A DNA stretch of 64,000 nucleotides from Bacteroidota bacterium (lineage in GTDB: Bacteria > Bacteroidota > Bacteroidia > AKYH767-A > 2013-40CM-41-45). The position numbers and the translations under genes are program-made. A model generated the notes under the pieces. That model did no database searches. It had not been told where the DNA came from and saw only the letters and a program-made list of their open reading frames with translations. The DNA is taken from contig JANPNV010000168.1 in assembly GCA_031427625.1 (NCBI GenBank), positions 3,898 to 67,897 of the forward strand, written 5' to 3'. Positions 1,392-1,649 of the stretch are shown piece after piece (within the stretch, counting starts at the first letter, position 1; each line of letters opens with the position of its first letter).

Positions 1392-1649
1392 CGTTCCGTA
1401 AGCATTCCGTAAGAAAAAACTGTCCAGAATTTTACTTTCAATGTCAAAGAATGTATAAAACAGGAGCTAATACAACTTAAAAAACCTTTCTCGACGCGGC
1501 CTAATGTCAAAAAATGTATAATCTATGTCAAGAGATGTAAAAATTTACAGACCTCCGCCCCGGGTACGTATAAAATTCTAAAGCCCGCGCTAGACGCGGG
1601 CTTTACTTTTCAAAGGGGGGTCATTCCGTAAGCCATCCGTAAGAAAAAG
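1392..1649. repeat. Composite non-coding repeat unit: two 28-bp direct repeats (each a tandem pair of the 11-mer ccattccgtaag) flanking three atgtcaaNaNatgtaNaaa motifs and a GC palindrome
   Basis: Direct repeat cgttccgtaagcattccgtaagaaaaaa at 1392-1420 is repeated as cattccgtaagccatccgtaagaaaaag at 1623-1649. atgtcaaagaatgtataaaa occurs at 1441-1460, with variants at 1504-1522 and 1525-1544. Confidence 0.6.
1580..1610 (+). terminator. Intrinsic-terminator-like hairpin (gcccgcg-ctaga-cgcgggc + T-rich tail), potentially bidirectional
   Basis: aaagcccgcgctagacgcgggctttactttt is a perfect 7-bp GC stem with a 5-nt loop, flanked by an A-run 5' and a T-rich run 3'. It lies 500 bp from the nearest stop codon, so it is more likely tied to an unannotated transcript. 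Confidence 0.45.

Follow-up and report, generated by a model that had tools for sequence, protein, structure and literature searches.

The locus studied here raises the question of whether a repeat-rich stretch of non-coding DNA that looks like a self-contained unit is one. It occupies positions 1392–1649 (258 bp) of a 64,000-nt window from a Bacteroidota bacterium (GCA_031427625.1, contig JANPNV010000168.1, positions 3,898–67,897, forward strand), the window being the whole stretch of DNA analysed and the one to which all copy counts refer. The left end of the window is an array of cargo genes of the type IX secretion system (T9SS), five Por_Secre_tail genes in a row (24–13887) with long AT-rich spacers of 0.2–1.2 kb, and the unit lies inside the 851-bp spacer between a gene ending at 1055 and the gene 1907–5620, which encodes a 1237-aa DUF7619/Por_Secre_tail protein. 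An earlier note described it as bounded by two direct repeats (here boxes 1 and 2), as containing three copies of another motif and a terminator-like palindrome, and as lying 350 bp from any gene, a distance that comes close on the upstream side (the unit starts 337 nt past the stop at 1055) and is too large on the downstream side (it ends 258 nt ahead of the ATG at 1907). We found that the 258 bp are not an element, and are instead the seam of two independently assorting non-coding modules. With moderate confidence, we read this seam as a recombination-prone module boundary that carries a terminator or insulator hairpin and putative phased protein-binding boxes. The unit is only mildly unusual, being of the lineage-specific intergenic kind that combines a terminator with an array of binding sites, on a recombination joint, and it corresponds in full to none of the families whose membership was testable here.

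The two modules emerge from an anchored comparison of the window with 24 near-identical metagenome contigs, retrieved by exact look-up of the 1237-aa protein and of its ≥90% variants (denoted below by L codes), 22 of which are informative on the unit. The shared segment that begins at the seam (Table 1) is ~100% identical in all 24 contigs, with 8 single-nucleotide polymorphism (SNP) positions across 21 of them, and four contexts are found. In the window-type context (L005–L007 and L052–L054) contigs are identical to the window throughout. In the second, represented by L002, identity holds only from 1555; on the left side, the last 72 nt are represented by a variant that is 71% similar, beyond which the DNA is unrelated, and an unrelated sequence stands in place of box 1. 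In the third (L001, L003, L004 and L066) identity holds only from 1564, preceded by an unrelated spacer of 470 nt that ends in ...GTCCCGCATGGA|GTAC and, before it, by a different T9SS gene. In the fourth (L055–L065) the whole unit is present and identity holds from 1213, where an IS66-family element adjoins. The right half of the unit, with the hairpin and box 2, travels ~100% identical with the 1237-aa gene behind three different left neighbours. In a related metagenome-assembled genome (MAG), Bacteroidota OTE_38_metabat_521, homology to the window stops exactly at GGGTAC (1567) and gives way to different DNA, which lacks box 2 and brings a strong T7 terminator of its own. Joints fall at 1554–1567 in three independent comparisons, and the unit splits at 1563–1567 (GGGTAC) into a left part of 176 nt and a right part of 82 nt. 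Together, the context and MAG comparisons assign the left 176 nt to the upstream DNA and the right 82 nt to the downstream gene. No near-identical flanking proteins are on record for the alternative left contexts.

Table 1. Coordinates of the features discussed in the text (positions in the window).
Feature	Position	Strand	Description
Tail module A	1187–1383	+	Non-coding trailer of the T9SS gene ending at 1055; homologous to 5711–5909
L-module	1249–1567	+	Part of the trailer kept after an unrelated T9SS gene in MAG OTE_38_metabat_521
Box 1	1394–1418	+	TTCCGTAAG-ca-TTCCGTAAG and A-run, 11-bp period; part of the L-module
Three ATGTCAAnnnATGTAnAA repeats	1441–1458, 1504–1521, 1525–1542	+	Six phased ATGT(C/A)(A/T)A half-sites; part of the L-module
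Terminal motif A	1555–1567	+	CCGCCCCGGGTAC (CCGC-N5-GTAS); joint where the four left/right contexts diverge
Shared segment	1568–5925	+	Hairpin, box 2, 260-nt upstream region, gene 1907–5620, tail module B and motif B
GC-rich hairpin	1579–1605	both	11-bp stem (7 G-C pairs), 5-nt loop; resembles a terminator on either strand; co-inherited with the downstream segment
Box 2	1624–1648	+	TTCCGTAAG-cc-ATCCGTAAG and A-run; co-inherited with the downstream gene
Tail module B and motif B	5711–5925	+	Module 5711–5909, then motif B, CCGCTCAGAGTAG

The left 176 nt form the 3′ terminus of a non-coding trailer that is low in copy number and specific to this lineage. Tail modules A and B are 66.5% identical over 200 nt (blastn, E 1e-18), and the L-module is 71.6% identical over 324 nt to the MAG (E 1e-47), where the trailer follows a 904-aa T9SS gene non-homologous to the upstream protein of the window and contains box 1, the ATGT repeats and, unchanged, CAGACCTCCGCCCCGGGTAC. 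Conservation with the MAG begins within the tail module, 150 nt ahead of box 1. Copy B passes from the tail directly into CCCGCTCAGAGTAG, while copy A has ~170 nt, with box 1 and the ATGT repeats, before its terminal motif. Every trailer copy (A, B and MAG) lies ~130–190 nt downstream of an unrelated T9SS cargo gene, the genes that precede the copies being non-homologous, and ends in CCGC-N5-GTAS, a motif that occurs in the window only at 1555–1567 and 5913–5925. Profile searches with nhmmer in the window and related loci recovered only copies A and B and the MAG copy, and viral scans with the end and inner blocks of the L-module gave only high-GC coding matches or none. The tail modules contain no intact open reading frame (ORF), no Pfam match and no consensus RNA structure. 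A minus-strand pseudogene was considered for them and rejected, all six frames being broken in copies A, B and MAG, with no Pfam match at E ≤ 1; the 33% amino acid identity of the copies at 66% nucleotide identity is, by our own count, the non-coding expectation. A trailer that is common to unrelated T9SS genes, and whose end is a swap point between strains, hints at reshuffling of the cargo array.

The same comparisons bear on the proposal that the unit is a miniature non-autonomous mobile element, or the footprint of an excised one, bounded by 25-nt direct repeats. Such an element should be present or absent as a block in related genomes, but of the 22 informative contigs 17 have the complete unit and 5, where it is cut in its middle, have the right half only; none lacks it as a block, and its halves separate. 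The direct repeats do bound a stretch of 230 bp, in a neighbourhood rich in mobile DNA, yet a target duplication would be shorter and more nearly perfect, and no inverted repeat pairs the ends of 1392–1649, which excludes terminal inverted repeats. No further copy was found in the window, the whole-genome scan of the MAG gave a single box locus, and plasmid and phage collections gave no match. We consider a mobile element or scar extremely improbable. What survives of the suspected link with DNA rearrangement is the recombination joint itself, and the locus illustrates that flanking repeats are no proof of a discrete element.

It had also been suggested that the region could simply be the long 5′ leader of the gene 1907–5620. 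This holds for 1564–1906, which is co-inherited with that gene, and fails for more distant relatives: homologues of the 1237-aa protein (53% and 45% identity) have upstream regions of ~120–190 nt, unrelated to that of the window, and short, unrelated downstream regions. Since these homologues have unrelated upstream regions, the spacer is not one conserved leader, and that idea was discarded.

The repeats and the hairpin of the unit are all real, and none is attributable to chance. The direct repeats and their A-runs had been correctly noticed, although each repeat is 25 nt long and built of 9-mer half-sites, and the features that they enclose do not form one bounded unit. Each box has the form TTCCGTAAG-nn-TTCCGTAAG-A5, that is, a tandem pair of 9-mers with an 11-bp period and no 12-mer; box 1 (TTCCGTAAGCATTCCGTAAGAAAAA) and box 2 (TTCCGTAAGCCATCCGTAAGAAAAA) match at 23 of 25 positions and start 230 bp apart, or ~22 helical turns. 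In the window, the double-box pattern has two matches against 0.02 expected, which are boxes 1 and 2 themselves, and the 8-mer TCCGTAAG occurs four times against 0.97 expected, each time inside a box. Box 1 is kept in the MAG as CTCCGTAAGCATTCCGTAAGAAAAAAA, nearly invariant while adjacent bases diverge. Because of the 11-bp internal period, both half-sites lie on one face of the DNA. This geometry suggests that the two boxes are putative sites for one sequence-specific DNA-binding protein, which would probably bind as a tandem dimer. A regulator-binding array, one of the roles first envisaged for the unit, remains the most plausible putative one for the boxes.

One close likeness is to the operators of winged-helix response regulators (the pho box of PhoB, and sites of the OmpR/WalR type). 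Like these operators, both boxes are direct repeats with a period of 10–11 bp, here identical 9-nt half-sites with starts 11 bp apart; a second array, ATGT(C/A)(A/T)A, repeats every 10–11 bp, and box 2 occupies the −33 position relative to a relaxed, weakly promoter-like −7 box (TATCTTTT, 1650–1657) located 7 nt after the A-run of box 2. This position suggests that box 2 may regulate the downstream gene, in the manner of an activator site. Unlike those operators, the boxes have no known cognate regulator and box 1 adjoins no promoter-like element. We know of no described regulator consensus that the box motif matches, and a literature search for the box 8-mer returned only primers and similar sequences.

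Genome-collection and metagenome DNA scans were queried with the double-box pattern. In the genome collection, a single related locus was found, that of MAG OTE_38_metabat_521. The remaining genome and metagenome matches belong to other phyla and consist of tandem TCCGTAAGAAN repeats with an 11-bp unit, or of coding sequence, unrelated to the boxes; the viral ones, a family of coding sequences and iterons beside a primase gene, were judged coincidental. The iterons are seven TTCCGTAAG(G) copies at 7900–8215 of the viral contig IMGVR_UViG_3300028603_000234 (L020), directly 3′ of a D5_N/PriCT_1/DUF5906 primase-helicase gene, and this stretch is probably a replication origin; it shares the box 9-mer in an unrelated context.

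The three copies of the second motif, ATGTCAAnAnATGTAnAA, were confirmed at 1441, 1504 and 1525 with 0–1 mismatch, and the 18-mer is found five times in the window when up to 2 mismatches are allowed, compared with an expectation of 0.69. Positions 1504–1545 consist of four phased units of 10–11 nt, ATGT(C/A)(A/T)A. These repeats persist for the most part in the MAG, and to some extent also in L002 (TGTWACATTRTGTAAA twice), and the array would constitute a second phased site, for putative protein binding or for bending.

The palindrome is a real hairpin, with fully complementary arms TAAAGCCCGCG (1579–1589) and CGCGGGCTTTA (1595–1605), single copy in the window and stable in folding (ΔG −19.8 kcal/mol, z −3.3 on the plus strand; −21.1 kcal/mol, z −4.8 on the minus strand). 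Its likeness to an intrinsic terminator is only partial. As in such terminators, a perfect GC-rich stem, a short loop and a T-rich tail lie between co-oriented genes; in contrast with them, neither strand has an uninterrupted T-tract (TTTACTTTTC on plus, TTTAGAATTTTA on minus), and a simple terminator scan accepted the minus strand only; moreover the hairpin, 524 nt past the upstream stop, is co-inherited with the downstream gene and not with the upstream one. We nevertheless read it as a terminator or insulator because every trailer or motif copy has a strong hairpin within 0–12 nt after it (z −3.3, −4.0 and −4.45). In our model it would stop transcription and insulate the downstream gene against read-through from the upstream cargo gene. 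Within the L-module, CTCGACGCGGCCTAATG (1488–1503) resembles the 3′ arm region of the hairpin (1590–1607, CTAGACGCGGGCTTTAC; nhmmer E 0.09), and may be a decayed earlier copy.

Several observations weigh against this model of a terminator or insulator hairpin with protein-binding boxes. We infer the protein-binding and insulator roles from geometry alone. The scan of the spacer (1056–1906) found no promoter-like element after box 1, and the trailer variant of L002 lacks box 1, so that a trailer can do without it. The U-tract is interrupted, and a natural SNP, G1587A (in L056, L060, L062 and L064), weakens the stem on its 5′ side without compensation at 1597. That the trailer follows T9SS genes rests on three copies, and the alternative contexts are known from short metagenome contigs that do not reach their far sides. 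The second context is on weaker ground than the others, because the L002 scaffold opens with 290 GC-rich nt that look like a fragment of a TPR-type regulator from another organism of higher GC content, and could therefore be partly chimeric.

The hairpin behind the repeats also invites the reading, one of those first proposed for the unit, of an independent small RNA (sRNA) gene on the plus strand; its promoter would lie near box 1, its body would carry the three seed-like AUGUCAA repeats, and 1579–1605 would be its terminator. In addition to the strong downstream hairpin, this proposal has in its favour the 72% conservation of the L-module in a second genome, where it is again followed by a terminator, a far better one. 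However, the putative body and terminator are not inherited as one unit, as they are separate in L001, L003, L004 and L066, in L002 and in the MAG, and the conserved stretch already starts in the tail module, 150 nt before box 1. Rfam gave no match, either at a permissive E-value over 900–2100 or at the gathering score over the whole window. The 211-nt stretch does not fold better than shuffled sequences (z −1.6 and −1.0), and the three-way consensus fold, at −7.4 kcal/mol, has no meaningful covariation. The Bacteroidetes −7 box (TAnnTTTG) is absent from 1056–1906 on either strand, and no relaxed TAnnTTT occurs within 180 nt after box 1, the next one downstream being at 1604, in the tail of the hairpin; relaxed −7-like boxes are found at 1650 and at 1881, the latter 26 nt before the ATG. 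No sigma-70-like site was detected on the plus strand at 1390–1440. An sRNA gene is, in our view, unlikely.

Equally doubtful is another proposal, that the upstream gene has a long 3′ untranslated region (UTR) and the downstream gene a long 5′ leader, the repeats being relics of a local duplication with no function at the DNA level. It accounts for the absence of any terminator, in the terminator scan, between the stop at 1055 and the hairpin, for the constant co-inheritance of the right half with the downstream gene, and for the position of the trailers, always between a cargo gene and a hairpin. Against it, the 23/25 match is limited to the boxes, with unrelated sequence around each copy, which favours selection on the box, or a specific event, over a decayed duplication. 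In addition, box 1 is near-invariant in the MAG while the surrounding bases diverge, and distant homologues of the downstream gene have only ~120–190 nt upstream.

The spacers around these modules are colonised by three kinds of mobile DNA, namely an IS66-family element, a group II intron, and repetitive extragenic palindromes (REP) with a REP-associated tyrosine transposase (RAYT), which makes them a hot spot of structural variation and explains some of the differences between contexts. The spot would be prone to rearrangement as these elements use the spacers. The IS66-family element adjoins 1213 (1212/1213) in at least 11 contigs (151–2468 in L056); it carries HTH_Tnp_1, TnpB_IS66 and DDE_Tnp_IS66 genes and 23-bp inverted ends, TATCC[A/G]TCCGACCAAC[C/T]ACATAT, and has no clean target duplication, the sequence to its left looking like part of another copy. 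The group II intron is absent from the window and lies, in sister contigs of the third and fourth contexts, right after CCCGCT-NNNN-GTAG (5925). It starts with GTGTG, extends from 4835 to ~6758 in L055, and is inserted at GTAG|TCTAAGCG; past the intron the 3′ exon resumes as TCTTAAGCGC, equal to TCTAAGCGCG at 5926 of the window. It matches Rfam RF01999 (79 bits) and RF00029 (64 bits), and its intron-encoded protein has RVT_1 and GIIM domains. A CTACG loop (intron nt 273–277) is complementary to the CGTAG that precedes the insertion in motif B. At motif A the −1 base differs (C), and no intron-occupied allele was seen among the contigs.

A hypervariable patch (5906–5925 of the window, and the corresponding positions of L001 and L055–L066) lies directly 5′ of the intron: CGGA, CATC or GGGA replaces the CAGA of the window between CCCGCT and GTAG, and an AA/AT/none indel precedes CCCGC, in contigs that otherwise differ at 8 positions over 4.35 kb. 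Intron-less alleles represent one haplotype, and intron-bearing alleles at least five. The patch may result from co-conversion of the flanking exon during repeated retrohoming, in which case these 4–5 nt would record co-conversion in natural populations. The REP-like palindromes, headed by GTAG (GTAGTCYRMGCGCGA), are at 5922–5986 and 6093–6114 and together make up a hairpin of REPIN type (z −4.45). At 6800–7620 of L055, similar palindromes surround a 187-aa Y1_Tnp (RAYT-like) ORF. The resemblance of our locus to REP sequences, or bacterial interspersed mosaic elements (BIME), with a RAYT therefore comes from the GTAG-headed palindromes of the adjoining spacer (5922–6114), from the Y1_Tnp ORF of the sister contig and from the intron and IS66-family element that have inserted into these spacers, whereas the hairpin 1579–1605 is single copy, has no GTAG head and is dissimilar to the REPs of the spacer.

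The recombination joint raises the possibility of a site-specific recombination site similar to a phage attachment site (attP), in which the boxes would be arm sites, CCGCCCCGG|GTAC a GC-rich core, and the ATGT array an accessory site for a bending protein. Lambda attP and NBU1 attN1 have paired direct-repeat arm sites around a core and are of similar size; the 258 bp resemble them in size (~250 bp) and in their paired arm repeats. As in attP sites, boxes 1394–1418 and 1624–1648 flank a GC-rich core (1555–1567), the likeness being one of architecture, an A/T-rich phased array is present, and three natural joints fall inside the 13-nt core between the boxes. Moreover, the shared 4.35-kb segment has the core motif at its other end as well, with a hypervariable spacer in motif B, and the motif is also found in the otherwise unrelated left flank of L001 (CCCGCATGGAGTAC). 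However, a Pfam scan of the 40 ORFs of the window detected no recombinase, integrase or transposase in the 64 kb, and none is encoded next to the joints or elsewhere in the related contigs apart from the genes of the unrelated IS66 family and of the intron. Inverted core-type sites are missing, the unit is flanked by ordinary cargo genes and not by an integrative element with a duplicated att site at its far end, the motif of trailer B comes without boxes, and neither an empty site nor a circular junction was recovered. Scans for tRNA and tmRNA genes in the window and in L001–L004 found none, which leaves no tRNA-type att site, and the right boundary in the sister contigs is explained by the group II intron in a REP-like GTAG head. 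We regard an att-like site, the main rival of our own reading, as unlikely, and give as little weight to its corollary, that a recombinase acting in trans would exchange or insert T9SS cargo cassettes bounded by CCGC-N5-GTAS.

A bolder version compares the trailer with the attC sites of integron cassettes. A conserved non-coding 3′ module, an exchange joint at its end and a group II intron at one joint are common to both; differences are the lack of a GTTRRRY core, of an attC-like hairpin and of IntI, the restriction to three copies of the module, and an intron in the same orientation as the gene. The sequences at the joints are GTAC|GTAT and GTAG|TCTA. That the trailer ending in CCGC-N5-GTAS is the site of a new cassette-exchange system for T9SS cargo genes, functionally analogous to attC, appears to us highly unlikely. 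The same low credence applies to the details of that scenario, with the TTCCGTAAG boxes as accessory arm sites for a trans-encoded recombinase, an intron homing to the joint like group IIC-attC introns, and the 258 bp as a cassette junction.

Three further observations concern other parts of the window. An extracytoplasmic function (ECF) sigma/anti-sigma pair lies immediately upstream of another T9SS gene (DUF4331) at 42748–46779, and a half-box-like string, CATTCCGTATG, is found near it at 44622–44632, probably by chance. A candidate ECF-sigma promoter at the left end of the unit (GAAC-N16-CGTAA, 1377–1401) was rejected: the pattern occurs at chance frequency, its −35 part is not conserved in the MAG, and the upstream region of the window's own ECF operon has no related motif. 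Downstream of a minus-strand T9SS gene, inverted repeats of ~110 bp (6179–6288 and 6645–6752), ~76% similar to MAG sequences (L011 586–695 and L014 440–552), enclose ~350 bp, and 6179–6752 could be an invertible segment or resemble a miniature inverted-repeat transposable element. Finally, a hairpin repeat, GTGAACAG...CTGTTCAC, follows the PKD-domain T9SS gene at 13895–13961 and is shared with the MAG (L011 400–447 and 4581–4647).

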